From the NCBI GenBank assembly GCA_965178125.1, contig OZ237751.1:620001-684000 (forward strand): a stretch of DNA of 64,000 bases, given 5' to 3'. Positions 27,959-64,000 of this stretch are shown here, piece after piece; within the stretch, counting starts at the first letter, position 1, and each line of letters opens with the position of its first letter. The position numbers and the translations under genes were made by a program. The notes under the pieces are model-generated. The model made no database searches. It worked only from the letters and a program-made list of their open reading frames with translations, and was not told the origin of the DNA. The stretch comes from Bilabrum cf. latius. Lineage: Eukaryota.

Positions 27959-28676
27959 TGTTCGGTGCTTTGAAGTGACTGAGAAAAGCTAGCGTGAGGT
28001 ATGCGGATGAGCTCGGATCCGGAAAAGATGGATCGATCACCCGCGAGCTGGACAAAATCTGTATCCCGGGATCCGGGATGCACAAGCAAGCGATATTCTC
28101 GCTGTTTTCTCGCCCCTGCTTGCACATACGATTCCATGTCTCTCTCAGACATGGAAAACAGTGACTCGTTATGCCGCGAGTAGCTCAGACCCTGGCTGGC
28201 AGCGTGGAGGCGCAACTTCCACCCCGGCACGCACTGTATCACAAGATGCGCAGCCCCTCCAGTGTGTCCTCCCTCGCTCATGTAACTGGCAAAAGCTTCC
28301 ATCTCAAAGTCTTCCATACAAGTTTATACTGAGCTCCCTCGGCTGAGTCCCACCTCATGTATTCAAGCTGGCGGAGCCTGCCGTTCCGCGGTCCGCTTGC
28401 TTGCAGCACCACTCGTCGGTGCTCAAGACGGATTACTGCCGCAAGCGACTCGGAAACAGCCTGCGGGTACCATGTGCTTGTATGTAAAATTAGGTAAGAG
28501 GTACCATGTAGACGAAACAATATCATGATGATCACTGTATGCACGGGCGGAGCACACTCCGGATCGTTGAGGTAATTGGCTATTTTCTCCTACATTTAAA
28601 AGAAAACTCAAGACAAAGAGGGCCACGGTTTTACGTCTGATCTCTTGACATGGGAATAGGTGGTATATCTATCAAC

Positions 28677-29903
28677 ATGAAGTATTACTGCGCTGTTCTG
28701 GGACTGCTACTGGTTGCGGTAGGAGTTGCAGTTGCAGATCCTGTGGAACTGACCGACGTGTTCCAATCGAAAGTCGGGGGGTATTCGTGCTACAGAGTGC
28801 CTTCACTCATTGCCAGCAATGGCGCGCTGCATGTATTTGTGGAAGCACGCAGGCCCAGCTGCGACGATCAAGCGCCGAAGGATATCCTGATGGCATCGAG
28901 CTTTGACGGAGGCTCGACTTGGCCAGCGAGGCAGCTCGTTGTCGGCCATTCTTTTGGAAATCAGACCTACCGCAATCCATACGCGATTGCACTGAACAAT
29001 GGCAGCATTCTTCTGCAATTCGTGAATTCGACGATGGCTCCTTGGACCAGCCATCAAACACGGTCAGATGACGGCGGGCTCACTTGGAGCGAACCCACAG
29101 CGCAGACAGGGCTACCCATTTGGATTGATGGCATCTTGGCTGGCCCAGGAACCGGCATTGTCCTGGGGCGAATTGCAGGAAAGTCGGCGCCGCGCACCGG
29201 TCGCTTGCTCAGTTGCGGAACCACTGGGTACCAGGCAGGACGGAACATGACCGCTGCGGCCTGGTACAGCGACGACGGTGGTGCGTCGTGGACCATGTCT
29301 GAGCCAGTGTTCCCCGGCATGGCAGAGTGCCAGGTGGCCGAGCTGGCTGACGGCACCGTGCTGATCAACTTCCGGGGTCGTCACGAGAACCCGTGCGACT
29401 GCAGGGCGCAAGCGAGCAGCAGCGACGGAGGTGCGACTTGGTCGCAGATCGAATGGGTGCCCGCTCTCGTGGAGCCAGTGTGCTCCGCCGGTCTCGTGTC
29501 GGATGCAGCTGCAGGGTGCCCCCAAGCGCAGGACCCCCAGCAGGTCCCGCTGATCTTCTCCAACCCAGCCACCAAGAAATCGAGGGTGAACATGACAGCC
29601 CGGGCTTCTTACGACGGTGGCAAGACTTGGGAGTGGGAGCAGCTGCTGTGGCAGGGCCCATCCGCCTACTCATGCCTCGCTGCTCTCGACGCTCCATGGG
29701 CCCTGAGGCTGCCTACTGCCAGTGGCGGCAACTTGGAGCGTGTCGGCTTGCGTTCGAATGGAGCGGCCGGTGAGGGTGCAGCAGGGGATTCAAATGGATG
29801 CCCCGGACGAATCGGCATTGTGTTTGAGCGAGGCGTGCAATCGGACTACGAGTACCTGACCTTCGCAGTGATTCAGCCGCCGCCGCTGTCATCGGGGTCG
29901 TGA
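28677..29903 (+). CDS. Secreted sialidase/neuraminidase (GH33, BNR/Asp-box)
   Basis: Signal peptide, YRVP (FRIP-like) motif and five Asp boxes (SFDGGSTW, SDDGGLTW, SDDGGASW, SSDGGATW, SYDGGKTW); TGA stop. Alternative in-frame ATG at 28650. Confidence 0.92.
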   Translation: MKYYCAVLGLLLVAVGVAVADPVELTDVFQSKVGGYSCYRVPSLIASNGALHVFVEARRPSCDDQAPKDILMASSFDGGSTWPARQLVVGHSFGNQTYRNPYAIALNNGSILLQFVNSTMAPWTSHQTRSDDGGLTWSEPTAQTGLPIWIDGILAGPGTGIVLGRIAGKSAPRTGRLLSCGTTGYQAGRNMTAAAWYSDDGGASWTMSEPVFPGMAECQVAELADGTVLINFRGRHENPCDCRAQASSSDGGATWSQIEWVPALVEPVCSAGLVSDAAAGCPQAQDPQQVPLIFSNPATKKSRVNMTARASYDGGKTWEWEQLLWQGPSAYSCLAALDAPWALRLPTASGGNLERVGLRSNGAAGEGAAGDSNGCPGRIGIVFERGVQSDYEYLTFAVIQPPPLSSGS

Positions 29904-30079
29904 ACGCGGCATCGAACAGATCCTGCTTGCTTGCTATATGTACACAATGACAATGCAAATAATGGCAAGTTTCCTAATTTGGCGGGCTGTTCACCGGCTG
30001 TTCATCAGCTGCAGCCTGCAGTTCTCTTGCGGAACCTTATTTGTCGCGGCGCCGCACAAGGATCCTGAAACGTCTAAAC

Positions 30080-30230
30080 CATTCTAGTCGTCTGATGTTT
30101 ACTACACGGAGTGGCGGTGGTTTCCCACCTCCACCCATCATCCCATGAGTTGTGTTGAGTTGGCCCCCTGGTTGGCCCGCCCCGGCTAGGCGCGGCGTCG
30201 TGCCGGCGCTGCTCTTGTCGGGGCTTATGC
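30080..30230. repeat. Split direct repeat A, copy 1 (151 bp)
   Basis: Identical by eye to 30449-30599 (cattctagtcgtctgatg...ggggcttatgc). Confidence 0.95.
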
Positions 30231-30288
30231 CGGGCAGGGGGTCGGAGGGTGCCCCCAGAACTAGAGTAATGGGGGCTGGGATGGTGGG

Positions 30289-30448
30289 TGGAACAGAAGA
30301 ACTTGAGAGTTGTTCTGTGATAATAATACTTACTTTGTTCCTCTGTTTTTAGGTAAGAGTGGCACGAGTGGTCCGGCGTGCTGGGCTCGGATCAATGTTG
30401 CGTGCACTTGCAGGCGCTAGAATGCCGTATAACTGGAAGTGATGAGCA
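30289..30448. repeat. Split direct repeat B, copy 1 (160 bp)
   Basis: Identical by eye to 37169-37328 (tggaacagaagaacttg...gaagtgatgagca). Confidence 0.95.
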
Positions 30449-30599
30449 CATTCTAGTCGTCTGATGTTTACTACACGGAGTGGCGGTGGTTTCCCACCTC
30501 CACCCATCATCCCATGAGTTGTGTTGAGTTGGCCCCCTGGTTGGCCCGCCCCGGCTAGGCGCGGCGTCGTGCCGGCGCTGCTCTTGTCGGGGCTTATGC
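30449..30599. repeat. Split direct repeat A, copy 2 (abuts B copy 1)
   Basis: Direct copy of 30080-30230. Confidence 0.95.
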
Positions 30600-30723
30600 T
30601 AACTTGGCCGGCCAAGGGGCCAAATCGGTTGGGTTGTAGTGTGTGTGACCGTTGCGGGACCGAATGGGTTAGCTACGGTTAGGGCGCTGTAGCAGCGCCC
30701 ATGGACAAACCGCCGGGGTTGTC

Positions 30724-31462
30724 TATGTCACTGAGGACAGCCCCCCTCGTGGGCTCGTCCCTTGACGATCTGAACAGATCAGGGCGACGGCAGCATGACA
30801 TCGGCGGTCGCAGCGTTGCGGGCCGTGGTCTCCGGTGGGGTTGGCCGGATGGGATGTCGGCACCGCTTGCGTCAGTTTCGGTGCGATGTGTATGTCACTG
30901 GGGACAGCCCCCCTCGTGGGCTCGTCCCTTGACGATCTGAACAGATCAGGGCGACGGCAGCATGACATCGGCGGTCGCAGCGTTGCGGGCCGTGGTCTCC
31001 GGTGGGGTTGGCCGGTTTGGATGTCGGTGCCACGCGCGGCGGGTGCGGTGCGGTGGCTGAGTCCCAGGGGACCGCCCCCTTCGTGGGTTCGTCCGTTGAC
31101 GATATGAACAGATCAGAGCAATGCATCAGGGCAGCGGCCATCGCAGCGTTGCGGGGCTTGGTTGGCCGTGGCGGGGCCGATATGGCTAGCTACGGCCGGG
31201 TCGCCAGTGGTTCGGCAAGCCGGTACCCGGACCGCACGAGCCACGGTGACGCCGCGGCTTCGTGCCGCAGAGTTGGCGATAAGCTGCCGAGTCTGGGAAT
31301 CGGCAGGGACCGCCCTAGTACAGTCCGTCATGGGTGTCTATGTCACTTTGGACAGCCCCCCTTGTGGGCTCGTCCTTTGACGATCTGAGCATATCGGAGA
31401 ATGGCATCAGAATAGCGGCAGTCGCAGCGTTGCGGGCCGTGGTCACCGGTGGGGTCGGCCGG
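30724..31462. repeat. ~167-bp repeat family: two near-identical and two degenerate copies
   Basis: tatgtcactg(a/g)ggacagcccccctcgtgggctcgtcccttgacgatctgaacagatc starts at 30724 and 30891; diverged copies near 31061 and 31339. Confidence 0.85.
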
Positions 31463-31531
31463 AACAATAATTTGGATGCCGCTCCATTCAGGTGGCAGTA
31501 GATGCTAACCATACGTAACTTAAACTAAGCT

Positions 31532-34500
31532 CAGTATGAGGCCGAGCCAATCAAGGCAAGCAGCGATCAGACGATCAGCTGCAGTCGTAGGCCAGTACGT
31601 GGCCGAGCCAATCAAGGCAAGCAGCGATCAGGCGATCAGCTGCACTGCGAGGCTCTCGAGCCGAGCCCGCACGAGGCCAGTATGTGACCGAGCCAATCAG
31701 GGCAAGCAGCGATCCAGCGATCAACTGCACTGCGAGGCTCGCCGAGCCGAGCCAGGACGAGGCCAGTATGTGGCCGAGTCAATCAAGGCAAGCAGCGATC
31801 CAATGATCAGCTGCACTGCAAGGCTCTCGATCCGAGCCAGCCAAAGGCCAGTACGTGGCCGAGCCAATCAAGGCAAGCAGCGATCAGACGATCAGCTGCA
31901 GTCGTAGGCCAGTACGTGGCCGAGCCAATCAGGGCAAGCAGCGATCAGGCGATCAACTGCACTGCGAGGCTCTCGAGCCGAGCCCGCACGAGGCCAGTAT
32001 GTGGCCGAGCCAATCAGGGCAAGCAGCGATCCAGCGATCAACTGCACTGCGAGGCTCGCCGAGCCGAGCCCTCACGAGGCCAGTATGTGGCCGAGCCAAT
32101 CAAGGCAAGCAGCGATCCGGCGATCAGCTGCACTGCGAGGCTCGCCGAGCCGAGCCCTCACGAGGCCAGTATGTGGCCGAGCCAATCAAGGCAAGCAGCG
32201 ATCCAGCGATCAGCTGCACTGCGAGGCTCTCAAGTCGAGCCCGCACGAGGCCAGTACGTGGCCGAGCCAATCAGGGCAAGCAGCGATCAGGCGATCAGCT
32301 GCACTGCGAGGCTCTCGAGCCGAGCCAGCCAAAGGCCAGTACGTGGCCGAGCCAATCAGGGCAAGCAGCGATCAGGCGATCAGCTGCACTGCGAGGCTCG
32401 CCGAGCCGAGCCAGGACGAGGCCAGTATGTGGCCGAGCCAATCAAGGCAAGCAGCGATCCAGCGATCATCTGCACTGCGAGGCTCTCAAGTCGAGCCCGC
32501 ACGAGGCCAGTACGTGGCCGAGCCAATCAGGGCAAGCAGCGATCCAACGATCAGCTGCACTGCGAGGCTCTCGAGCCGAGCCAGCCAAAGGCCAGTACGT
32601 GGCCGAGCCAGTCAAGGCAAGCAGCGATCAGACGATCAGCTGCACTGCGAGGCTCTCGAGCCGAGCCAGCCAAAGGCCAGTACGTGGCCGAGCCAATCAG
32701 GGCAAGCAGCGATCCAGCGATCAGCTGCACTGCGAGGCTCTCAAGCCGAGCCAGGACCAGGCCAGTATGTGGCCGAGCCAATCAGGGCAAGCAGCGATCC
32801 AGCGATCAGCCGCACTGCGAGGCTCTCGAGCCGAGCCAGCCAAAGGCCAGTACGTGGCCGAGCCAATCAAGGCAAGCAGCGATCCAGCGATCAGCTGCAC
32901 TGCGAGGCTCTCAAGCCGAGCCCTCACCAGGCCAGTATGTGGCCGAGCCAATCAGGGCAAGCAGCGATCCGGCGATCAGCTGCTCTGCAAGGCTCTCGAT
33001 CCGAGCCAGGACGAGGCCAGTATGTGGCCGAGCCAATCAAGGCAAGCAGCGATCAGGCGATCAGCTGCACTGCGAGGCTCGCCGAGCCGAGCAAGGACGA
33101 GGCCAGTATGTGGCCGAGCCAATCAAGGCAAGCAGCGATCCGGCGATCAGCTGCACTGCGAGGCTCTCGAGCCGAGCCAGCCAAAGGCCAGTACGTGGCC
33201 GAGCCAATCAAGGCAAGCAGCGATCCGGCGATCAGCTGCACTGCGAGGCTCTCAAGCCGAGCCAGCACGAGGCCAGTATGTGGCCGAGCCAATCAAGGCA
33301 AGCAGCGATCAGGCGATCAGCTGCACTGCGAGGCTCTCGAGCCGAGCCAGGACCAGGCCAGTACGTGGCCGAGCCAATCAAGGCAAGCAGCGATCCGGCG
33401 ATCAGCTGCATTGCGAGGCCCTCCAGCCGAGCCAGGACGAGGCCAGTACGTGGCCGAGCCAATCAGGGCAAGCAGCGATCCAGCGATCAGCTGCACTGCG
33501 AGGCTCTCGAGCCGAGCCCGCACGCGGCCAGTGCGTGGCCGAGCCAATCAAGGCAAGCAGCGATCCGGCGATCAGCTGCACTGCGAGGCTCTCGAGCCGA
33601 GCCAGCCTAAGGCCAGTATGTGGCCGAGCCAATCAAGGCAAGCAGCGATCCGGCGATCAGCTGCACTGCGAGGCCCTCCAGCCGGGCCAGCCAAAGGCCA
33701 GTACGTGGCCGAGCCAATCAGGGCAAGCAGCGATCAGGCGATCAGCTGCACTGCGAGGCTCTCAAGCCGAGCCCGCACGAGGCCAGTACGTGGCCGAGCC
33801 AATCAGGGCAAGCAGCGATCCCGCGATCAACTGCCTGCAAGGCTCGCCGAGCCGAGCCTGCACAAGGCCAGTATGTGGCCGAGCCAATCAAGGCAAGCAG
33901 CGATCCAGCGATCAGCTGCACTGCAAGGCTCTCGAGCCGAGCCAGGACCAGGCCAGTACGTGGCCGGGCCAATCAAGGCAAGCAGCGATCCGGCGATCAG
34001 CTGCACTGCGAGGCTCTCGAGCCGAGCCAGCCTAAGGCCAGTATGTGGCCGAGCCAATCAAGGCAAGCAGCGATCCGGCGATCAGCTGCACTGCGAGGCC
34101 CTCAAGCCGAGCCAGCCAAAGGCCAGTACGTGGCCGAGCCAATCAGGGCAAGCAGCGATCAGGCGATCAGCTGCACTGCGAGGCTCTCAAGCCGAGCCCG
34201 CACGAGGCCAGTACGTGGCCGAGCCAATCAGAGCAAGCAGCGATCCGGCGATCAACTGCCTGCAAGGCTCGCCGAGCCGAGCCTGCACAAGGCCAGTATG
34301 TGGCCGAGCCAATCAAGGCAAGCAGCGATCCGGTGATCAGCTGCACTGCGAGGCTCTCGAGCCGAGCCCTCACGAGGCCAGTACGTGGCCGAGCCAATCA
34401 GGGCAAGCAGCGATCAGGCTCTCAAGCCGAGCCCGCACGAGGCCAGTACGTGGCCGAGCCAATCAGGGCAAGCAGCGATCCGGCGATCAACTGCCTGCAA

Positions 34501-35977
34501 GGCTCGCCGAGCCGAGCCTGCACAAGGCCAGTATGTGGCCGAGCCAATCAAGGCAAGCAGCGATCCGGTGATCAGCTGCACTGCGAGGCTCTCGAGCCGA
34601 GCCCGCACGAGGCCAGTATGTGGCCGAGCCAATCAGGGCAAGCAGCGATCCCGCGATCAACTGCCTGCAAGGCTCGCCGAGCCGAGCCAGGACGAGGCCA
34701 GTACGTGGCCGAGCCAATCAAGGCAAGCAGCGATCCGGCGATCGGCTGCACTGCGAGGCTCGCCGAGCCGAGCCAGGACGAGGCCAGTACGTGGCCGAGC
34801 CAATCAAGGCAAGCAGCGATCAGGCGATCAGCTGCACTGCGAGGCTCTCGAGCCGAGCCAGCCTAAGGCCAGTACGTGGCCGAGCCAATCAAGGCAAGCA
34901 GCGATCAGGCGATCAGCTGCACTGCGAGGCCCTCAAGCCGAGCCAGCCAAAGGCCAGTACGTGGCCGAGCCAATCAGGGCAAGCAGCGATCCGGCGATCA
35001 GCTGCACTGCGAGGCTCTCGAGCCGAGCCCTCACGAGGCCAGTACGTGGCCGAGCCAATCAAGGCAAGCAGCGATCCGGCGATCGGCTGCACTGCGAGGC
35101 TCGCCGAGCCGAGCCAGGACGAGGCCAGTACGTGGCCGAGCCAATCAAGGCAAGCAGCGATCCGGCGATCAACTGCACTGCGAGGCTCGCCGAGCCGAGC
35201 CAGGACGAGGCCAGTACGTGGCCGAGCCAATCAAGGCAAGCAGCGATCCGGCGATCAACTGCCTGCAAGGCTCGCCGAGCCGAGCCTGCACAAGGCCAGT
35301 ATGTGGCCGAGCCAATCAAGGCAAGCAGCGATCCGGTGATCAGCTGCACTGCGAGGCTCTCGAGCCGAGCCCTCACGAGGCCAGTATGAGGCCGAGCCAA
35401 TCAAGGCAAGCAGCGATCCGGCGATCGGCTGCACTGCGAGGCTCGCCGAGCCGAGCCAGGACGAGGCCAGTACGTGGCCGAGCCAATCAAGGCAAGCAGC
35501 GATCAGACGATCAGCTGCACTGCGAGGCTCTCGAGCCGAGCCAGGACGATGCCAGTACGTGGCCGAGCCAGTCAAGGCAAGCAGCGATCCGGCGATTAGC
35601 TGCACCGCGAGGCTCTCGAGCCGAGCCCGCACGAGGCCAGTATGTGGCCTTTGTCAATCAAGGCAAGCAGCGATCAGGCGATCAGCTGCACTGCGAGGCT
35701 CGCCGAGCCGAGCCAGGACGAGGCCAGTATGTGGCCTAGCCAATCAAGGCAAGCAGCGAGCCGGCGATCAGCTGCGCTGCGAGGCTCGCCGAGCCGAGCA
35801 AGGACGAGGCCAGTACGTGGCCGAGCCAATCAAGGCAAGCAACGATCCGGCGATCAGCTGCACTGCGAGGCTCTCGAGCCGAGGCAGGACGAGGCCAGTA
35901 TGTGGCCGCACCAATCAAGGCAAGCAGCGATCAGGCGATCAGCTGCACTGCAAGGCTCGCGAGTTAGCACGAGGCCA
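31532..35977. repeat. 85-bp tandem satellite, about 52 units
   Basis: Consensus ggccagta(c/t)gtggccgagccaatca(a/g)ggcaagcagcgatcNNNcgatcagctgcactgcgaggctctcgagccgagcc plus a variable ~7-8 nt linker; a few units are truncated. Confidence 0.97.
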
Positions 35978-36283
35978 TCATGCCGTCGGTGAGGAGCGTA
36001 GGTCCGTTATCGGGTGTTGCCGATTGGTGGAGCGTATGCTTGATAGCCGTTTTGTAGCGGATGCTTGCTGCACAAAACCCTTGGCGTTGCCCGGCACTTG
36101 GATAGCGGCCGCGTGGCATGTGGCCCGGTTGCAGATCGCACGCCCGTTTTGGGGCGTCTCACAACGACGGACCCAGGGTCCAAAGAAGCGCTTGATAGCA
36201 GCATGCTTGATTTCTTATTTCGTTTTGACATGATCGAATGTTTCTGTGGCTTAGCGCCGTGCCAGGTGCGCAGGGTGCGCACA

Positions 36284-37075
36284 ATGTGTCCCGACGCCGG
36301 AACACAAAAATGGGGTTAGCAACCCCAGCCTCACAACAGAGGACTTATTCACACGCTATCATAGCGGTGTTTGAACCCAAGGTTCAGCTGCTGGCACCGC
36401 GGTAGGTGCACAGCCGGGCTACGGACCGGCACGGCCCGAATAGCTCAGAAATGTGTCCGGACGCCGGAACACAAAAATGGGGTTAGCAACCCCAGCCTCA
36501 CAACAGAGGACTTATTCACACGCTATCATAGCGGTGTTTGAACCCAAGGTTCAGCGACTGGCACCGCGGTAGGTGCACAGCCGGGCTACGGACCGGCACG
36601 GCCCGATAGCTCAGAAATGTGTCCGGACGCCGGAACACAAAAATGGGGTTAGCAACCCCAGCCTCACAACAGAGGACTTATTCACACGCTATCATAGCGG
36701 TGTTTGAACCCAAGGTTCAGCAGCTGGCACCGCGGTAGGTGCACAGCCGGGCTACGGACCGGCACGGCCCGAATAGCTCAGAAATGTGTCCGGACGCCGG
36801 AACACAAAAATGGGGTTAGCAACCCCAGCCTCACAACAGAGGACTTATTCACACGCTATCATAGCGGTGTTTGAACCCAAGGTTCAGCGACTGGCACCGC
36901 GGTAGGTGCACAGCCGGGCTACGGACCGGCACGGCCCGATAGCTCAGAAATGTGTCCGGACGCCGGAACACAAAAATGGGGTTAGCAACCCCAGCCTCAC
37001 AACAGAGGACTTATTCACACGCTATCATAGCGGTGTTTGAACCCAAGGTTCAGCAGCTGGCACCGTGCAGGTGCC
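36284..37075. repeat. 166/167-bp tandem repeat, about 4.7 copies
   Basis: Units start with atgtgtcc at 36284, 36451, 36617, 36784 and 36950. Confidence 0.96.
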
Positions 37076-37168
37076 TACGCAGCAGCCGGGAACGGTCCCG
37101 CAACTGTCACGCAAACAACAACCCAATCTTCCGTAGGAATGAGACACAATGCGGACACAGTGGGTGTT

Positions 37169-37328
37169 TGGAACAGAAGAACTTGAGAGTTGTTCTGTGA
37201 TAATAATACTTACTTTGTTCCTCTGTTTTTAGGTAAGAGTGGCACGAGTGGTCCGGCGTGCTGGGCTCGGATCAATGTTGCGTGCACTTGCAGGCGCTAG
37301 AATGCCGTATAACTGGAAGTGATGAGCA
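37169..37328. repeat. Split direct repeat B, copy 2
   Basis: Direct copy of 30289-30448. Confidence 0.95.
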
Positions 37329-37362
37329 TATTCACACAAATATATACTCAGATAGGAATAGC

Positions 37363-48511: not shown

Positions 48512-48847
48512 GGCTGTTTGCACTCCACGTGAAGTTGCTAGCCGTGATCGTTCTGGAGCGAGTGGATGCATCATGGTGCCCCCACGGATACCTTTGGGTG
48601 TCAACTAGATTATTTACTAGTTAGATACAGTGGTTGTAGGTCCCCTTATCGAGAATTGCACTCCCCTTGCTAATCCTGGCCTGATTTGACTATGACGCGG
48701 CGCTTGGCGCGCCCAACGGAAGGTGTGCGGAACCAACGCGCGGCGCCGATGCATATCCGGAATCCGACAAACAGAATCGTATTTTGCCGCTGAACAACAG
48801 TTTGATTGCTCCTGCTTGACTTTGCTATGTAGAATGATCAATACAGT

Positions 48848-49891
48848 ATGAGTGGGGTGGCGAGATAGGCGTGGTTGGCCGCGAGGCCTTTCGTTGCGGG
48901 TGCGATGGCAACCACCGGCGCTGTGATCCTTTCCAATCCGGCTGAGACTGTGAAAACCAGGCTGTAGCTTGCGAGAGAGCTAGGTGTATCATCCGGTGGG
49001 GCTCAGTACCGGGGCTTTTTCGATGCTTTCCGCTAGATTGTTCGCAACGAGGGTCTGGCAGGTTTGCAAGGCGGGCTGGCGCCTGCGATCTTGTTCTAGG
49101 TCGCGATGAATGGGACCCGGCTTGGATCGTACCCATTCTTTGAGAATTTTTATAGGACCGCGCTGGGCTTGCCTGAACACGGTTAGCTGGGTCGGGATGA
49201 TGGGGCAGGCCAGATGCAGAGCAGGCTGTCCACCTTTGGTGCTAAACTTGGCGCTGGCGGCACGGCAGGCATGCTTGGTGCGTTTGTCGGGTCACCGTTC
49301 AACCTCGTGAAATGCAGGTTGCAAGGGCAGAGCTCGCACTTCAAGGCCAGGGAGAGCTACAACTACTCTGGATTCGGCGAGGCGTTGAGGGACATCTACA
49401 GAGAGGGCGGGGTCCGAGGGCTGTGGCGGGGCGCCACGGCCTCCATGATGCGAATAGCAGTGGGAAGTGCGGTGCAGCTGTCCGTGTACGATTCAATCAA
49501 AGGAGCTATCCTGCATTGGACCGGCGCGTCCGAGGGGGTCGGCGTTCACCTGGGAGCCTCCCTGCTAACCGGAGTTATCGTCACGGTGTGCATGAATCCA
49601 TTGGATGTCGTAAGCACACGTGTGTACAATGCCAGGCCTGGATTTTACAAGGGTCTCGGAGATTGCTTCCGACGGACGCTAGCGGCAGAGGGCGTGACCG
49701 GACTCTACAAAGGTCTCGCCGCCCACTACATTAGGCTGGGTCCCCACACCGTGTACACGTTTGTTTTGCTGGAGCAATGCAAGATTCTTCTGGGGATACA
49801 ACCGCGGTAGGTGAGCAGAGCTACAGCTGGAAGCTCAAGCGGTGTTGGCAGTGTGGCTGCCACTGGCACGGGGTCCGACAAGTCTGCATGA
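48848..49891 (+). CDS. Mitochondrial carrier (SLC25), OAC1/SLC25A34-35-like
   Basis: Three carrier signatures: NPAETVKTRL[TAG]L, SPFNLVKCRLQ, NPLDVVSTR; also GLQGGLAPAILF[TAG]VAMNGTRLG and RLGPHT. 3' end assumes readthrough of TAG at 49808 to TGA at 49889. Confidence 0.9.
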
Positions 49892-54050: not shown

Positions 54051-57000
54051 TTAGTCTGCGCCACTTGGGCCATATTCGATCGAAATACCCTCTGCAACTG
54101 CCGCCCGTATGAGCCTGGCAACCTCGTCCTCGCCATCATGCTCATATTCACCAGGTAAAATAGAATGAGCTGAATGGGCACTTACCAGACCAAGTGCCCC
54201 ATCTTGGTGCGAAGAGTCCTGCCCTACCTATACGGTGCGCCTGTGTGACTCAAGCACATCCGAATCGCTGCCTGGCGCATCTCCTGCAGCGGTCGCGCAC
54301 CGGCTGTCACGTGCTTCGCGTGCGGTCCCGAATGTAGGCATGCTGCCTTGGCTTTGAGGCACTATCATGAGCTCTGAAGCAGTCGCGTCTTCGCGCTGTT
54401 GCCCTCCAGGTGGCAAGCCTTGCCCCGCATCCACGTCTTCGGTAGACTCCACTGCGACCAGGTGGCGATTGCGATGAGTCGAGCTGGCAACGACCAGCTC
54501 GTGTGACCCAGCTGAACCCATGTCGATCAAAACACCGGGGTCGGAGCTCCGGCGAGATCGTTCCCGTGCATCCAAACCGATTACGTGACGGTGGGGCGAA
54601 GAAGAGACTGCATTGCCAGCAGCCATTCTGCGTTGTGGACCCGCGCACCCAACAACGTCCCTGTGCAAACCATCATCATCGATGGCAACGACACCAACGT
54701 CTTGCACAACGAATGAGTCAGCTGCCAGATTCTTCATAGGACCGTCGTGGTCGCTCACCTTGCTTGCTCCCGCACCAGCGTCCACAATACTGTGCGCGCC
54801 TACCGCCTCCCTTGCTGTAAGCGCAACCCCTAGGGACTGCGCCCTTTGCTTACTTGCAAGGGGTTCACTGCGATCATGCCTACTGGATGTGCCCCCCGCT
54901 TGTTCTCTTGACTGGATGTCCATCGTGGCGATGGCTTGCACTTTCATCGGCGTAGTGTCCCGACCAGAATCCGCTACAGCATCGTCCTGAGACTCCAGGT
55001 CACTGTCACCGAATGGATCCGTGTCGATCCTGGTGGCGTGCATTGGGCTAGCGTCCTCAGAACTAGCGGCAGTTCCGAGCAAGAATGCAGGCTAGGAGCG
55101 CCGCCTCGACCGCGGCGAGCGTGTCGCGGAATTGCGCGCAGATGATCGAGGCTTCGAAGACTCGCCGGAGTCGCGACACTCGGCTGTCGGGGCAGCCACT
55201 GGATGATGATTCGACCCAGTGTCTACGTTGACTGTTTGGAGGCCTCTCTGCAGCAGCGTGGGCGAACCACCTTGACGCCCAGCCAGCGCACGCCTTGCAG
55301 TAGCTGACATGAGTGTCTCCATAGCAGCTTCTCTCAGCTGCCTACGGCTAGCACGACGTTCCATTGTGGAGCCTCGTATCTCTACACTTGGATGCTGTGC
55401 ACCAACACCAAAGCCACGTGGACTCCGCTGATTCATCATGGTTGACATACCCGCAGAGTTAGTGCGAAGGATACCTGCTTGATCCTGCTCCAAGATACCC
55501 GTGCCGTAGGAACTAGACTGTAGCATACCAGGTCCTTCGCCAGATTCATGCCTGGTCATGCTTGAGTGACGAGTGCTCATGGATACCCGTGCTCCGCTCT
55601 CCCAGGCAGCGCTCATCCTGCTGCTGCCGTTGCGACGGCCTAGAGAATCAGCACCGCGAATGGCGTACGATCCGGGTCCGAAGAGGTTTCTGTTCGCACG
55701 TGAGGATCGCCCGACACCTTCCCCAACTACTGAAGGCAATCCTTCTGCTGTTACCTCCGAGGAAGCCCGAGAGGATGCACGCGCAGGGCCCCGCAGCTGG
55801 CCATCGTCCTTGCCTCTACCGCTACGAGCAACCTAGAGCCTTCTGTTTGATCGTGCCAGCGCAACCTCACGATCTCCATCGCCTTCATCCCCGTCCAGCG
55901 CGTCAGCATTTGCTATCTCTTCCTGTATCCTATGGGCCTCGTCCATTTCGGCTTGCACCGCCGCGGACTGTCTCGCTCCCATGTACCAGAGTCCAGCGAA
56001 GACTAAACCAACGAACAGGGCAGTCGCACTCACGAAGACAACGATGCCCACCACCAGCTCACGGGTAGTGAAGTCTATCTGCTAGCCGAGCTGCAAGGGA
56101 CTGCCATCGTCCCCGCTTGTGCTGTTCCCCACGCTAGGATCGGGATCGATCGAGTCGATCACTCGTACCGCTGCCACAATGCCGACCAGCACAGCATCAC
56201 TGGGCGCGCCGTTCGAATCGCTGCTGAAAAGGGTAGGGCCATTGGCGTATAGCTGCCTTGCAAATGTCTGGTCACTAAATGCGTTTATTAGGTCCTGCAT
56301 GAGCATAGACGAGGGGTCATCCGTTTGGTTCGCTGGCACGATAGTTGCATTCGTGCCAGATGAGGTGGTATCAGTGGATCCAGCTAGGACAGAGTCTGAC
56401 ACAGCAAGCCTAGATTTAACGATAAAGTACATTTCGACCCTGACGAATGGGACCTGTACCCGGATCGGCAGCGAGCTATCATTTCTTGTCAACTCGGCTT
56501 CAGAACTCGTTGCATTGCTTGACTCGTTCGTGGCCTAAAGAAGTCTAGTGGTCTTGTTATCTCCGATTTTGGGACGAAATTTTGACAGCATCCTGCGTTC
56601 AGACACCCCGACCTACTCCGATGAAAGCTATTCAGATGCAGGTGTAGCCTATGCCGCACTCGATCCAGCGCTAGCTGTTGAAACTGACAAAGCACCAGAC
56701 GGGCCAAACTCACCAGATGGACCGAAGGTGCTCTACGCATGGCGCTACGATGCATAGTTTGGCGGTGATTCATGCAATACCAAGCCCAACTATGCACCGC
56801 TATCACCGTGCCCGTAGGTCTAAGCTCTGACCCACATGGCAGCGCCGGCATCCACGTCCCCAGAGCCCACGGTCCCGTCCTGGAGGCCCCACTGAATGCT
56901 ACCACCAAGGGATCCCAGCAGACAGCCGCCGACAAGTCGCTCGATCTTACTTCGCGTGGATTGAAACTAAAGCGCATCCTGCGGCCCGTCCAGGTCCGAT

Positions 57001-60000
57001 ACGACCGAGCCAAACACAGACAAGGTAACGGTACCGTTCAGCTGCACCTCGGTCCACACCATGCCGGCAGGAGGCAGCTGCTACGGTCCTGCAGGCACTG
57101 CGTCTCTGATTGTGGGTGGGATGGATGAAAACGGGGTGGGATAGTTGCTGGGGGATGGGCTCGGGCTAGATGATGGCATGCTGCTGCTGGCTGCAGGCGG
57201 AGAAGAGCTGGCTGTCGTGCTGCTGGTAGAACTTGGCGCCGCAGACGCCCACGGTGCTGCATCTACAGACAATAAAGCTGCCAGGCCACCCCCTTCGGCA
57301 CCGGACGCAGCTGAGATAATCAATCCATCTCTAGTGCCCGCCTCCGCGATGGCTCCAATGGAGCCGTGTGGTACTTCTGATCTAGCAGATGCTACCAGCC
57401 TGTCGAGCAACTGACCGGCCCCAAATCGATCTGCGGTATCCACTGCTCGGATCAAATGCACCCGATCTACGGAGCGAGGGCCCAGCTCCAATACGTACAC
57501 TGCCGAAGCAGCCAGGACCTGCTGTGAATTTGCAACACCAACGGAGGTGGAGTTGAAAAGAGGGGGCGCCCCCACGACTGCCAGCACAGAATGCGAATCG
57601 TGACGAAGGGCAGGTGCAATCGCTGCTACGGAGACTCCAAACTGGCTGCCTGGCAGAAGTGACAGGTCCAGACCTCCAAATTGCGAGCCAATTGCCACGA
57701 CATTCTGCGCTGAACCAGTTGTGCCCCTCACAGTGATCAATGACACGGTGCCTGCAGCTGCGTCACTTTCGTTCAACATTTGATCATCACCATCCCAGAT
57801 ATCAATTGTACCTTCATCTTGGTTGCCTGGTTGGCCCACTGCAATCCGCATAAGGCAGGGCTATTGCTGCCCCACCGGTGGTGGGTACGACCGCCAACCC
57901 CGGTGATCACCAAGTCTCAGGGCCAATTGTGCATTGTCCGAAGCAACACAGCTGGACGGACCAAGCCGAGCTAGCGATGCACCAAACCGCAATCCAGCAG
58001 GCACCGATCGAACTCGGTTGATCCACTTGAACGATGAAACGGTCATATCTCTGGCCAATGTAGCCAGACCTACTCGACCAGCGCTGGGTCCGGGCGCACC
58101 GATGATTAGATCAGGCACCGAGTCACCGTTCATGTCGATTTCGGGGCCTCCCAGCAGCGAGGCGCCAAACTCGGTAGCCACCGAAAGACCCGTATCCATT
58201 CCACCGGAGAAAGAGCCGATCTTTGTTACGCTAATGGGAGCATCTGCAGTCTCATTGAGCCGGATCAGAAATACCGCACCTTCTTGGGCTCGTGCACCGG
58301 GGGCGCCCACCGCGATATCAACGAATCCATCGCCGTCAATATCGCCCGCAAATGTGACGGCGGCACCAAACCGGAGTGGAACTACTAGCACTTGCTAAGT
58401 CAACATGTTGTGGAACCCACCTCCTGTAGCCGCCCCGCCAATCAGGGACTTGACGGTAAACGCAGTGCCGTTCGCATCAACTGCTTCAAGCACTAGCACA
58501 GCTCCCAAATCGAAGGCACCAGGAAGTCCCATGAGCCTGTCTGGCAGCGTGTCGCCCGAGAGTAGACCGGGGCCAGAATATATGGTGGTAGTATTGCTCC
58601 CCTCTAGCTGGGTCAGCATGGTCTGCAGCGTAGCATTCAGAACTGTGATAGCCTCAAGACCAGTAAGCTGTACAGATGCAACTGGTGACGCGCTTGGTGC
58701 ATGGGTTGGCCTTTTTGTTGAAGCCGATGCTGTAGAGCTAGTGCTGCTGGTGCTGGTATAGCTAGCCGTGGCCGTGGCCGTGGCGGTGCTGGTGCTGGTG
58801 CTGGTATAGCTGGCCGTGGGCGTGGCGGTGCTGGTGCTGGTGCTGATGCTGGTATAGCTGGCCGTGGGCGTGGCGGTGCTGGTGCTGGTGCTGGTGCTGG
58901 TGCTGGTGCTGGTGCTGGTGCTGGTATAGCTGGCCGTGGGCGTGGCGGTGCTGGTGCTGGTGCTGGTGCTGGTGCTGGTATAGCTGGCCGTGGGCGTGGC
59001 GGTGCTGGTGCTGGTGCTGGTATAGCTGGCCGTGGGCGTGGCAGTGCCGGAACTCGTCACAGATGTAGACACGGACGGCGTCGCGGGCAGAGTCGTAGAA
59101 GGTGATGCAGTACAGCTCGGCGTGATACTCGAGCTAGGGCTGCTGGTGGGACTCGAAGTTGGTGGCATGCTTGGCGACTGGCTCGGCGTTCCACTGGGGC
59201 TTGCTATCGCACCCCATGAAAAGGACGAGAATCGAACCAGACGAAGCGCCGAAGTCGTCGGCGTGCAGACCTCCGACTACCAGAGCGTTTCGACCGCTGT
59301 GATCCAAGTCGCCAAGGTTGGCCACGAACCCGAACTAGTCCCCTGCAGCAATCGAGCTCCCAAACGCGCCGCCAGCTGCATCGAGCACTGCAAAAGACCC
59401 GACCGATGTCACAGTGCTGTTTGCTTCCAGGAATAGAATAAACACCGCCCCGGCACCCGAAGCCGCGGCATTATCGCTAGGAGCTCCAACAGCTAGGTCT
59501 TCCTCCCCATTTCCGTCCATGTCACCGGCGTTTACCAAAGATCTGCCGAAAGCGACAGCCTGTGCAACTCGCGCAGAGGGCAGTCCTTGGTTTCCTCCGA
59601 TCACCGACTCTTCGCCCAACAGAGTGCCATTGCGGCTGAGGTGCTGCACAAACACCTTGCGCTGATTGGTGGATCCAAATGCCAACCGAGCCGGAGAATC
59701 AGGGCGGCGAGGCGGAAGCGCAGCAAGGCCGCCCCCGATGTTGCACCCGATGCAATCGCTCCATCCGGCGGCCTGGAGGATCGAAATGTGCTCCCGCGCA
59801 GTGTCGTCAGCGTTCAAGAACACTACATAGAGCTCACCGCTATCGGAACCAGCTGCATCCTCTCGCGCAGCACCAACAACAATATCATTCAAACCGTCCA
59901 GATCCACGTCACCAATGCTGCCAAGTACGCCAAGACCAAGCCGAATGGCACCTGCACTCCCATACGCACCTGACTCACTGAGTGCCTAGTGAGCTATCGT

Positions 60001-63000
60001 GCCGTTGCTGTATAGCCGCAACACAAAGAATCGGCCCTGTCCATCCACGAGATCTTTCATCTTAAATGCACCAACCACCAGGCGTAGGAGCAGTGGATCA
60101 TCGCCCGCTGGTTGATGAAGAGCAGAGAGTCCGACCCCAAACCCGGGATTGGTCTCGTTGAGCACTTGCAGTCCGCCTGCGACTCCACTTACTTCTTGGT
60201 ACCACTTAACCGTGCCATTTCGGCGCAAAAATAGAATGTATATTGCACCCCGGTCAACTCCGCCGGCTTCTGTGCCTGATGCCCCGACGGCAACATCAGG
60301 AACTTGGTCCCCGTCCAAATCGCCGAGGCCAGCGACCCCCCTTCCAAACCAGTCACCAGGGGACAATCGGGGGAACTCGCCAAATATACTCTCTACACCG
60401 GGACGCACAATGCTACGTAGTGTACCTGCAGCTGGCTGGGACGGTGTCGCACTGGTGCTTGAAGTTATGCTAGGGCTTGGCGTCGCACTTGCCGTGCTTG
60501 ATGCAGAAGAGCTCGGGCTAGTACTGGGTGTCACGGATGAGGTTACTGATGGGGTCACTGATGAGGTTATAGAAGGCTATACAGTACAGCTCGGCGTGAT
60601 ACTCGAGGTAGGGCTGCTAGTGGGACTCGAACTTGGGCTAGGACTGGAAGAGGGACTCGGGCTGATGCTTGGGCTTGGGCTGCTGCTGGCCGCCGCACCA
60701 CCCATGAACAACACCAGCGCAGTGCCAGTGTCCGTACCAAAGTCGTCGTTCGTGAAGGCACCAATCACCTAATCGGGCCTAGAATCGCCGTCAATGTCAC
60801 CAAGCATAGAGACTGGACCGATGCGATCCCCACCAATCCCACCAATTATCAGGCTAACCGGCATAGTGTCACCGCCGATCCTCTCGAAGTTGTGCACCCA
60901 CGTGTCCGTTGAGTTGCTCTGCAGGAACAGTATGTAGACTGCTCCGTCGAATGGCTAGTAGTTGCCATCCTGCCGTGCTCCCACGGCCAAGTCGCACTCC
61001 GAGTCGCCATCGGCGTCTCCGATTGCAGCCACGTGACTGCCAAACTCGTCAGCATGCTACATGTACGACCCTATCGGGTTCGTGGTCCCATCGAGAGACC
61101 TGCTCCACTTCGCCATCACCGCATCTACCGTGCCGTTGCCAGCCAGCTGCAGCACTGCTACCGCCTGGTAGTTTGATCCGATCACTAACCGAGGTAGGGT
61201 GTACCCGCTTGAGGACGCTGGTGGCAGGGCAGCCACAGACACGACCACCTCCTGCAAGGGCGAGCTGTATATGTCCAGCCCACCGCCGACTGCCTGAGAG
61301 AGAATGATAGTCTAGCTGACGGTATCGTCGGCTCGCATGTACATGACAAGCAACCCCCCGCCAGCTGGCACGCCAAGCTAGGCCCGTTTCGGCGCAGCCG
61401 CAATATCGTTCAAGCCGTCCGAGTTCAAATCACCCAAATCGCCAGTAATGGCGCCACCGAAGTGATTTTCAACCGCTGGATCAAGCAAGAAGTTATCGGT
61501 AGATGGAACATTCTGCCCACTTAGTTCTGTCTAATGAGACACTGTACCATTTCTAGCTAATCGTAGCACCCACACCTTGCCCTGCCTCTCTGCACCTCCT
61601 ACCCAACCGCGGTACTCTCCTACTAGCAACCTCGCAGAGGTTCCATCATCACCGTAAGGCTGGCTCAAAATACCCAGGGCTTCACCGAAGCGGCTGTTGG
61701 CATTCGTCTCATTGTGCACAAGCCCGCCTTCCAGGGCGCTAATTTTCTGGGCTGCTTTGCACGTTCCATTGCGGTGTAGCAACAAAACCCACACAGCACC
61801 CTAGTTAGTAGCACCATCGTCATCATAAAAAGCACTAACGGCCACGTCGGGCACGCCGTCCAGGTTGATGTCCGGCAGACCCTGCACCGCCCTTCCAAAT
61901 CCAACGCCGGCATCGAGGTCAAGTCCGGATCCTGTTGACCCGTCTGCCACAAATTGGTGGGCTCGTACCACAGTACCGGGGGCGGCAGGATTCGGGGAAG
62001 CTGAAGGAGTCGAAGATGGCGTAGGACTCGTGCTGGGGCTTGGCACAGCGCCGCCCATAAACAGAACGAGGGCGCCACCGCTATTGGATTCCGCGGTGTT
62101 GCTTGTCTCGGCCCCAATCATCAGATCTGTTCGCCCATCTCCATCAAGGTCACCAATCGCACTTACAGCTGCAATCCGGTCAGCGTTCCCCGTACCCAGG
62201 AGGGGAAGCACTGCGGGGGTGTCACCACTAATAACCATAAAATCTCGTACCCATGTGTCCGTTGAGTTGCTTTCTAGGAGAAGAATGTACACCTGCCCAT
62301 CGTTAGAGCGGTAGTTGCCATCCTGCCGTGCTCCCACGGCCAGGTCGTACTCCGAGTCGCCATCGGCGTCTCCGATTGTAGCCACGTGGCTGCCAAACTC
62401 GTCAGCATGCTACATGTACGACCCTATCGGGTTCGTGGTCCCATCGAGAGACCTGCTCCACTTTGCCATCACCGCATCTACCGTGCCGTTGCCAGCCAGC
62501 TGCAGCACTGCAACAGCTTCGCTGCTGGATCCGACAACAAGACGAGGCAGCGCATAACCAGGCGAAGGAGGCAAGCAATCGACAGAAATAACCACCTCTT
62601 CCAAGAGCGGGTTGTATATGTCCAGCCCACCACCGGTTGCTTGGGTCAACGCAGCAGCCTCTCGGACCGTGTCGTCGGCTCGCATGTACAAGAGGATGAG
62701 GGCGCCCCCTTTAGACCGTCCGGCGTCTGCCCTCCGGGCCGCTGCAGCAATATCGTTGAAGCCATCCCCGTCTAAATCGCCCAGACCACCATTGACTGCC
62801 CCGCCTAGCTCATCCTCGCTCGAGTCGCCCAGCTAGAAGCTGCCGTGGAGCTGAATGCTCCTCTTGTTGAGCTCCGTCTGGTTTGCAACACTCCCGTTTC
62901 GAGCAAGCCGCAGCACCCAGACCCTTCCACTCTTCGAATCGCCATCCACTTCACCGCGGGGCTCGCCTACCAGCAATCGGACAAGGCTGCCGGCCTACCC

Positions 63001-64000
63001 ATTCGGCTGTGTCATGGTCCCGAGAGATTCGCCAAAGTGGCTGTCTGATTTGAGCTCACTATGCACGAGCCCGCCCTCCAGGGCGCTAATTTTCTGGGCT
63101 GCTTTGCACGTTCCGTTACGGTGTAGCAACAACACCCACACAGCGCCTTGGTGAGACTTGCCATCGTTGTCAAGATACGCACCAACAGCCACGTCGGGCA
63201 CGCCATCCAGATCAACGTCACGCAGGCCTTGCACCGCCCTGCCAAACCGATCACCTTCATCCAGATGCAGCCCTGATCCGCTCGAGCCATCTGTCACGAA
63301 TTGGTGCGCTCGTACAACCGTGCCGGCAGCAGCAGGGCTAGTGGAAGGCGTAATCGAGGGAGTTGGGATGGTGGACGCTGTCGCCGATGGCGTGGGTGTT
63401 CTCGTGGGACTTACTGTGGGCGATGACGAAGCCGTGGGAGACGGGCTCGGGAAGACCGACTCCTGATCTACCGCGATGGTCAGCAGAGCAACTGCTCCAG
63501 AGGCACTACCGAATTGGCTATCGTAGTACGGGAGGCCGACAGCAACGACAGTCCCACAGTCGGGTGAGCTGTCATAGATGCGCCCAATAGCAGCCAAGGA
63601 GTGCCCAAACCACGCTTGCGATTGTATTCCCCCGCCTACAGTATCGCTAAGGGAGTCTCTGTCGTACCTCATGGCGGCAGCCATCGAACCGTTGCTGCTG
63701 TGGATCGAGAGCATGAACACCGCACCGTCGTCCACACCGCCCGTTCGGCTGAATCCAGAGGCACCCACAAGCACTTCTGGCGTATCATCGCCGTTAAGAT
63801 CACCCATGAACACCACAGAAGACCCAAACAAGTCAAAATTCTGCGCCAAATCTACCTCCATGCCGTTCAAGCCTGGGGCAATGACACTTGCATTGAGGAG
63901 CCGAACCCCGGCACCAGGGTCACTGGCATTGCCAGTGTGCCCCAGGGAGATCAGGACGACCGCCCCGCGGTTGACCCCGCCTATGGTGGATTCCTACGCT
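54051..64000 (-). CDS. Giant FG-GAP/integrin-alpha-like beta-propeller repeat surface protein (5' partial) with a frameshift at ~59213
   Basis: Many GDxDGDGxxDxxVGA motifs in ~1350-bp units separated by S/P/T linkers; TM (LVVGIVVFVSATALFVGLVFAGLWY) near 56000; long cytoplasmic tail; TAA at 54051. 64000-59216 and 59212-54051 are each a single frame if TAG=Gln. Confidence 0.85.
58738..59045. repeat. Coding micro/minisatellite: (GTGCTG)n interleaved with a 24-bp unit, encoding a TSTSTS-ATPTASY mucin-like linker
   Basis: Runs of gtgctg separated by gtatagctggccgtgggcgtggcg. Confidence 0.9.

Follow-up and report, generated by a model that had tools for sequence, protein, structure and literature searches.

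Ngaro retrotransposons carry their repeats in the split-direct order A1-[ORFs]-B1A2B2, where the bracket stands for the open reading frames (ORFs) (PMC8547959). Split direct repeats of the same structure are described for PAT (PMC4157794) and VIPER elements (PMC6681497), and stramenopiles harbour a diversity of Ngaro elements (PMC12477816). A non-autonomous element from the same circle is TOC1 of Chlamydomonas reinhardtii, a version of the tyrosine recombinase (YR) retroelement TOC3 (PMC5613634, PMC9940879). As far as the title of Day & Rochaix 1991 tells, which is cited in PMC3623635, TOC1 has an unusual arrangement of its long terminal repeats (LTRs) and an internal 76-bp tandem array. The mechanism of split-repeat YR retrotransposons has been little studied. 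Here, a 7,249-bp element is described from a stretch of 64,000 nucleotides of Bilabrum cf. latius (the window), which corresponds to positions 620001-684000 of contig C17; other C-numbers denote contigs of the same 48.6-Mb eukaryotic assembly (111 contigs), in which all genome searches were performed. The element is very probably a non-autonomous split-direct-repeat YR retrotransposon of the TOC1-like kind, transcribed from the minus strand and moved by the reverse transcriptase (RT) and YR of a helper. This reading is carried by its layout, the dispersal of its family, precise ends, insertion without target-site duplication (TSD), the identity of repeats within a copy and a YR remnant in a relative.

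Exact extension of the repeats within the window yields an element from 30080 to 37328. The initial annotation had placed the right end at 37333, and the last 5 bases turned out to be flank that in part resembles the start of repeat A. The order A..BA......B reported there is exact: The two A copies (151 bp) and the two B copies (160 bp) are each identical with 0 mismatches, and a unique spacer separates the first A from the first B (Table 1). On the minus strand, the order reads X1 - interior - Y1 X2 - 58 bp - Y2, X being repeat B and Y repeat A, which is the A1-[interior]-B1A2B2 order of Ngaro elements. ORF-bearing elements of this genome share it, e.g. C9:404762-412484 (RT, E 0.003; YR, E 2e-6) and the C22 family (RT, E 5e-8; YR, E 2e-11). 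The proposed Ngaro/PAT-type layout agrees, therefore, both with the published structure and with RT/YR-coding elements of the same genome. The interior (30600-37168, ~6.6 kb) is, as also stated, almost wholly made of three tandem arrays, which fill 5,657 of 6,569 bases (86%).

Perfect repeats and long arrays are error-prone in assemblies, and the array length given here is assembly-based. A local duplication or misassembly is nevertheless scarcely believable. Contigs from three of four public runs (X2, X4 and X5) cross from the left flank into A without letter differences, so that this junction is not an assembly artefact, and contigs of two of the four runs cover the A-spacer-B stretch. In addition, 32 of 34 85-bp units of the central array are distinct sequences, and dispersed copies share the layout.

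These copies are numerous. A and B do not occur only at this locus: At least 33 matches to the termini were found on at least 17 contigs. Array-bearing copies with the same layout are present on C16 (3,943 bp), C33 (2,935 bp), C11 (2,162 bp, with a short 5' repeat), C24 and C7. The C24 copy (375817-391393) is a head-to-tail dimer of a 7.6-kb unit with one shared internal junction and 99.9% identity between the units. Integration of a circle into its own end would be expected to give such a dimer, as would unequal recombination. Copies on C10 and C36 are partial, and the remaining copies examined are short solo or truncated ends. The end bases are fixed, as 16 external junctions at the start of A and 11 at the end of B each lead into differing flanks; for the A start, 13 of 32 regex rows were discarded before counting, as they were judged by eye to be chance or internal hits. 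The first base of A is also joined to flanks in loose ends of all four runs. Across the 16 left and 11 right flanks, no target-site consensus was detected. An 823-bp copy on C6 interrupts a gag-like ORF of the C33 family, and an intact paralogue has both flanks contiguous without duplication or loss; this was the only paralogous empty site among 12 family loci tested. Complete copies do not have duplicated flanks either. This means, integration proceeds without TSD as in YR retrotransposons (DIRS order). For DIRS1, a trinucleotide match between target and circle junction has been described (PMC7192593). A short match of this type, reported for DIRS elements and not for split-repeat ones, was not found in the family.

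Within single copies, the repeat pairs are 100% identical in the window element, in C16 (155 and 166 bp), C33 (153 and 169 bp) and C24 (167 and 174 bp); the A pair is also identical in C11 and C7. By contrast, the subfamilies diverge: Termini of C17 and C16 share 78-83% over part of their length, and those of C33 and C24 barely align. Since pairs are identical within copies and subfamilies are divergent, each insertion should be young. Identity within a copy is what would be predicted if both repeats were regenerated from one template per jump, and it indirectly supports an RNA and a circular DNA intermediate. In the proposed cycle, a minus-strand transcript would start within the 5' repeat, end within the 3' repeat and be copied by the helper RT. 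The internal B1A2 junction would permit both ends to be rebuilt from one template, which would account for the identical pairs. The circular DNA would then be integrated by the helper YR without target duplication; a circle model has been described for DIRS (PMC7192593). Recombination between the two B copies could leave the short solo A-spacer-B copies.

The relatives on C24 and C7 connect the family to YR elements. In both, the array has a 204/206-bp unit that is related, on the same strand, to the 85-bp unit of the window element (E down to 1e-18). A frameshifted YR remnant that includes the H-x-x-R region lies immediately ahead of their internal repeats (E 2.2e-5 to the YR of C9, which itself has 1 unnamed match among public proteins). 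The remnant supports a descent of the family from a YR element. Internal repeats downstream of YR, a trait of Ngaro elements, are thus seen in this distant subfamily; the window copy is without YR.

Two other kinds of mobile element were weighed on these data. A DNA-only YR transposon that copies itself in like a Crypton and relies on gene conversion to keep its repeat pairs identical would fit the absence of a TSD and the fact that C24 and C7 retain a remnant of YR and none of RT. It is very improbable: Split direct repeats are a feature of RT-encoding YR elements, both in the literature (PMC4157794) and in this genome, and several independent copies have two identical repeat pairs each, with the members of one pair lying 6.9 kb apart. 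Furthermore, Cryptons use a short match between donor and target (10.1101/2022.05.23.493040), whereas the flanks here have no consensus. A non-autonomous Penelope-like element (PLE), in which, as for MRC1, partial-tandem insertion gives the impression of terminal repeats, is harder still to believe. PLEs form pseudo-LTRs and some Chlamys families hold tandem repeats (PMC8557442), to which the tandem dimer on C24 might be likened. However, PLE pseudo-LTRs stem from variable 5' truncation, whereas both ends are base-fixed across loci here. There are also two distinct repeat pairs around a unique spacer, a relative carries the YR remnant, and Rfam, hammerhead included, yielded 0 matches to the element at E<=0.1.

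The window copy encodes none of the gag, RT/ribonuclease H and YR proteins of an Ngaro element. A tblastn comparison with 15 gag/pol/YR-like ORFs of the same genome gave no credible match (best E 0.21). Due to this result and the non-coding frames of the array, the element is not an autonomous Ngaro. The central array contains 50 anchor motifs, corresponding to ~52 units in the assembly, with unit lengths of 85 bp (34 times), 86 bp (10 times), 170 bp (twice), 61, 65 and 87 bp. Arrays 1 and 3 both have 167-bp units, which are unrelated to each other. In the central array, each frame of the inferred sense (minus) strand comprises 43-48 stops. That all three plus-strand frames are open is due to the absence of stops from the unit; a coding role of these long frames was dismissed, as the unit length is not divisible by 3 and varies between units. 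A Pfam search with the array frames returned two sub-threshold matches and 0 passing stretches. Three units folded on the sense strand have a z of -4.2, a value that is inflated by repeats of a palindrome-bearing unit and was not used as support. Stops were counted under the host nuclear code, in which TAG is glutamine and TAA and TGA are stops. Translation table 15, suggested initially, is confirmed by long ORFs that merge across TAG and by a mitochondrial carrier gene (window 48827-49813), where two TAG codons fall into near-invariant columns with Q in 58/64 and 61/64 homologues. A literature search on a TAG=Gln code in stramenopiles gave nothing specific.

Candidate cis-signals were found at the ends. 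A hairpin ~35 nt from the 3' end is common to the window element and C24/C7. Its motif pattern has 27 sites genome-wide versus 1 in the control; 23 of them were inspected, leaving out C1:349617, C7:218677, C26:872636 and C43:135935. In 13 copies, 94.6% of the cells are paired, with covariation that is not significant (56 of 500 shuffles). Short inverted arms with an offset of 23-24 nt occur at all five family junctions examined, and those of C24 have changed yet are still complementary. Among six autonomous families, the same junction geometry recurs in one, C27, with a 6-bp arm at offset 23. The helper would be an autonomous split-repeat element of this genome and would probably recognize such short terminal cis-signals, i.e. 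the inverted arms at the junction and the 3' hairpin, not long terminal homology.

Several autonomous gag/RT/YR split-repeat elements are indeed present in the genome. Helper searches employed the profiles PF00589 (at least 22 matches) and PF00078 (at least 84) as well as single YR queries (at least 8 and 4). RT/YR matches near family termini on C6 and C43 were rejected as helper, as they belong to other elements or to nesting. In the three pol ORFs of autonomous elements scanned, no methyltransferase (MT) family was matched at E<=0.01.

A number of results weigh against the proposed non-autonomous YR retrotransposon or against its current activity. None of 11 YR-adjacent terminal regions compared clearly exceeds shuffles, C22 (29 versus a shuffle maximum of 28) and C25 (28 versus 27) being marginal, while family members score 36-186. 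The hints to the helper disagree, as the YR remnant points to the C9 clade and the junction geometry to C27; both are leads only. This copy itself has no protein remnant, so that its RT/YR ancestry is read from relatives, and the transcript, complementary DNA, circle and helper would be steps borrowed from the Ngaro/PAT model. A single full copy of the exact window subfamily was detected in the assembly. Among the pieces listed from four public runs, no empty allele of the element's own site was seen; for run X6, with a contig of the flank ending at 29945 and a depth of 3 at the junction, no interpretation is possible. The initial annotation therefore stands in part. Its recently mobilized non-autonomous family is dispersed, gene-less and has identical repeat pairs within copies, but only a single full copy of the exact subfamily was detected. 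Its helper has candidates among the autonomous elements, but matching termini were absent from the 11 regions compared. Instead of the empty allele it had envisaged, an empty paralogue was obtained for the C6 copy.

The same annotation regarded the arrays as satellites carried as cargo. Related 85-bp arrays were detected on at least 8 contigs (9 candidates scored), each with family termini at the same locus. The sister copy on C36, 88-97% identical in unique parts, has ~2 85-bp units as opposed to ~52 in C17, and the 5' 167-bp repeat is represented in C33 by one unit (92% identical). Hence, expansion occurs inside the element, and the arrays seem to be a native interior of the element that can expand, not free satellites that were captured. 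The ORFs would have been lost, and tandem arrays in their place could grow or shrink by slippage, unequal exchange or template jumps of RT. Capture of a pre-existing 85-bp satellite that was then spread and swapped by split-repeat elements is improbable. It could account for the 85-bp unit being better conserved between subfamilies (on average 86-87% between C17 and C16/C33) than the termini. It could also account for the mosaic on C33, in which divergent termini surround an interior of the C17 type that still includes a vestige of the C17-type B; from its sequence, this copy points to some module exchange between subfamilies. However, no free-standing array was found on the contigs with 85-bp matches, the range from ~2 to ~52 units implies expansion within the element, and the autonomous C22 family natively has a 5' array. 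As all arrays seen total ~20 kb, satellites are spread only in a small sense.

It is conceivable, if doubtful, that the central array is under selection as a cis-module of the RNA, for packaging or as a Gag scaffold, and that this module replaced the ORFs and was swapped between subfamilies by template switching. The helper would then read the junction geometry, i.e. arms 23-24 nt apart as shared with the unalignable C27, and not terminal identity. If true, this would define minimal cis-signals for the split-repeat replication cycle and show by which general route genes of retrotransposons can give way to tandem arrays.

A second family in the same genome has followed a similar path. The element at C14:771608-781153 is a non-autonomous split-repeat element with termini ~99% identical to those of the RT/YR-coding C22 family. 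It retains the native 5' 329/333-bp array of this family, and a 128-bp array with 35 units replaces the ORFs. The strand skew of this array is the same as in the window element (-0.37 against -0.36). It cannot be aligned with the window family and likewise has clean empty paralogues. The case for a relation between the 85-bp and 128-bp units is weak, since 5 of 300 shuffles score as high. This shows that two unrelated families in one genome turned a coding interior into arrays, one of them beside its autonomous parent. In the main texts of the openly readable literature, no report on array-dominated interiors that arose twice in one genome was found, and no paper on an array-dominated non-autonomous Ngaro beyond the TOC1 citation.

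Some further elements were encountered. C14:482485-485841 (3,357 bp) is a YR-only deletion derivative of the C14/C22 family. Four autonomous-element loci have in-frame tandem repeats (units of 96, 45, 51 and 30 bp) in ORFs before RT, about where non-autonomous copies carry the central array. A split-repeat mini-element of 1,104 bp, unrelated to the window family, with identical repeat pairs of 131 and 178 bp resides in AT-rich DNA at C12:332597-333700. At C14:277000-300000, C12:319000-334000 and in the flank of the C7 copy, GC-rich Ngaro-like elements interrupt stretches that are AT-rich and dense in genes; by analogy, these stretches may be reminiscent of endogenous virophage-like elements in Cafeteria. 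The features of the locus are compiled in Table 1. The element starts 176 bp after a sialidase-like gene. Elsewhere in the window (54051-63999, minus strand), two very long ORFs combine repeats, presumably FG-GAP/integrin-like, with Ser/Thr/Pro-rich linkers.

Table 1. Positions of the element's parts and of the neighbouring gene in the window
Feature	Position	Strand	Remarks
Repeat A copy 1	30080..30230	-	3'-terminal, Ngaro 'B2' in minus-strand reading; identical to 30449-30599
Hairpin motif, 10-bp stem	30111..30134	-	~35 nt from inferred 3' end; second copy 30480-30503
Spacer, 58 bp, unique	30231..30288	-	between last two repeats; 57 bp in C16, 54 bp in C24
Repeat B copy 1	30289..30448	-	internal copy of 5'-terminal repeat; identical to 37169-37328
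Internal end-to-start junction 30448/30449	30417..30456	.	taken as a model of the circle junction; 8-bp inverted arms 30417-30424 and 30449-30456, 24 nt apart
Repeat A copy 2	30449..30599	-	151 bp, identical to copy 1
Tandem array 1	30720..31162	.	167-bp unit, 2.7 copies, 86% matches; extra degenerate unit 31333-31452
Central tandem array	31531..35960	.	85-bp unit, ~52 copies, non-coding, T-rich on inferred sense strand
Tandem array 3 (5' array in sense)	36283..37065	.	167-bp unit, 4.7 copies, 98% matches
Repeat B copy 2	37169..37328	-	5'-terminal, 'A1' in sense; true right boundary 37328
Sialidase-like host gene (BNR_2), outside element	28641..29903	+	Pfam PF13088, E 4.9e-25

Among known systems, Ngaro elements of Cafeteria burkhardae are described with the A1-[ORFs]-B1A2B2 structure, a length of ~6 kb, several types per genome that cannot be aligned with each other and solo AB repeats, all of which resemble the situation here; by this description, they differ in that they encode gag/RT-RH/YR, some without ORF1 (PMC8547959). 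A search of PMC8547959 for the terms 'non-autonomous' and 'tandem repeat' gave 0 occurrences. VIPER and SIRE of Trypanosoma cruzi have split direct repeats, some of them 100% identical, and SIRE, a non-coding derivative made of terminal repeats, is comparable to the solo A-spacer-B copies. In contrast to the window element, SIRE is short and, as portrayed, without arrays, and its mobility is debated (PMC6681497). The DTC84 MITE (miniature inverted-repeat transposable element) and Tetris are likewise non-autonomous, with internal arrays of variable copy number, but according to their descriptions they are inverted-repeat DNA transposons and not split-direct-repeat YR retroelements. Array-filled elements can easily end up in annotations as mere tandem repeats; one curated pipeline moves families to the tandem repeats when their tandem overlap is >60% (PMC12477816).

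The 3' hairpin and the inverted arms at the junction, kept across divergent termini, are concrete cis-elements to mutate, and the window family together with C14/C22 forms a natural series for the origin of arrays inside retroelements. The kind of element is already known through TOC1, which the initial annotation had rightly invoked as a precedent for internal tandem repeats, and the most fitting label for the window element is that of a TOC1-like non-autonomous derivative, Ngaro/PAT-like in its working. Both are non-autonomous YR elements of similar size (TOC1 >5.6 kb) with an internal tandem array, and the window element is gene-less with split repeats and dispersed copies. The array accounts for only a minor part of TOC1, whereas arrays in three blocks make up most of the interior in the window element. 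For TOC1, an autonomous partner is recognized; for the window element, none that shares its termini was found among the regions compared. TOC3 is of the PAT type and has an MT domain, whereas the three pol ORFs scanned here gave no MT match.

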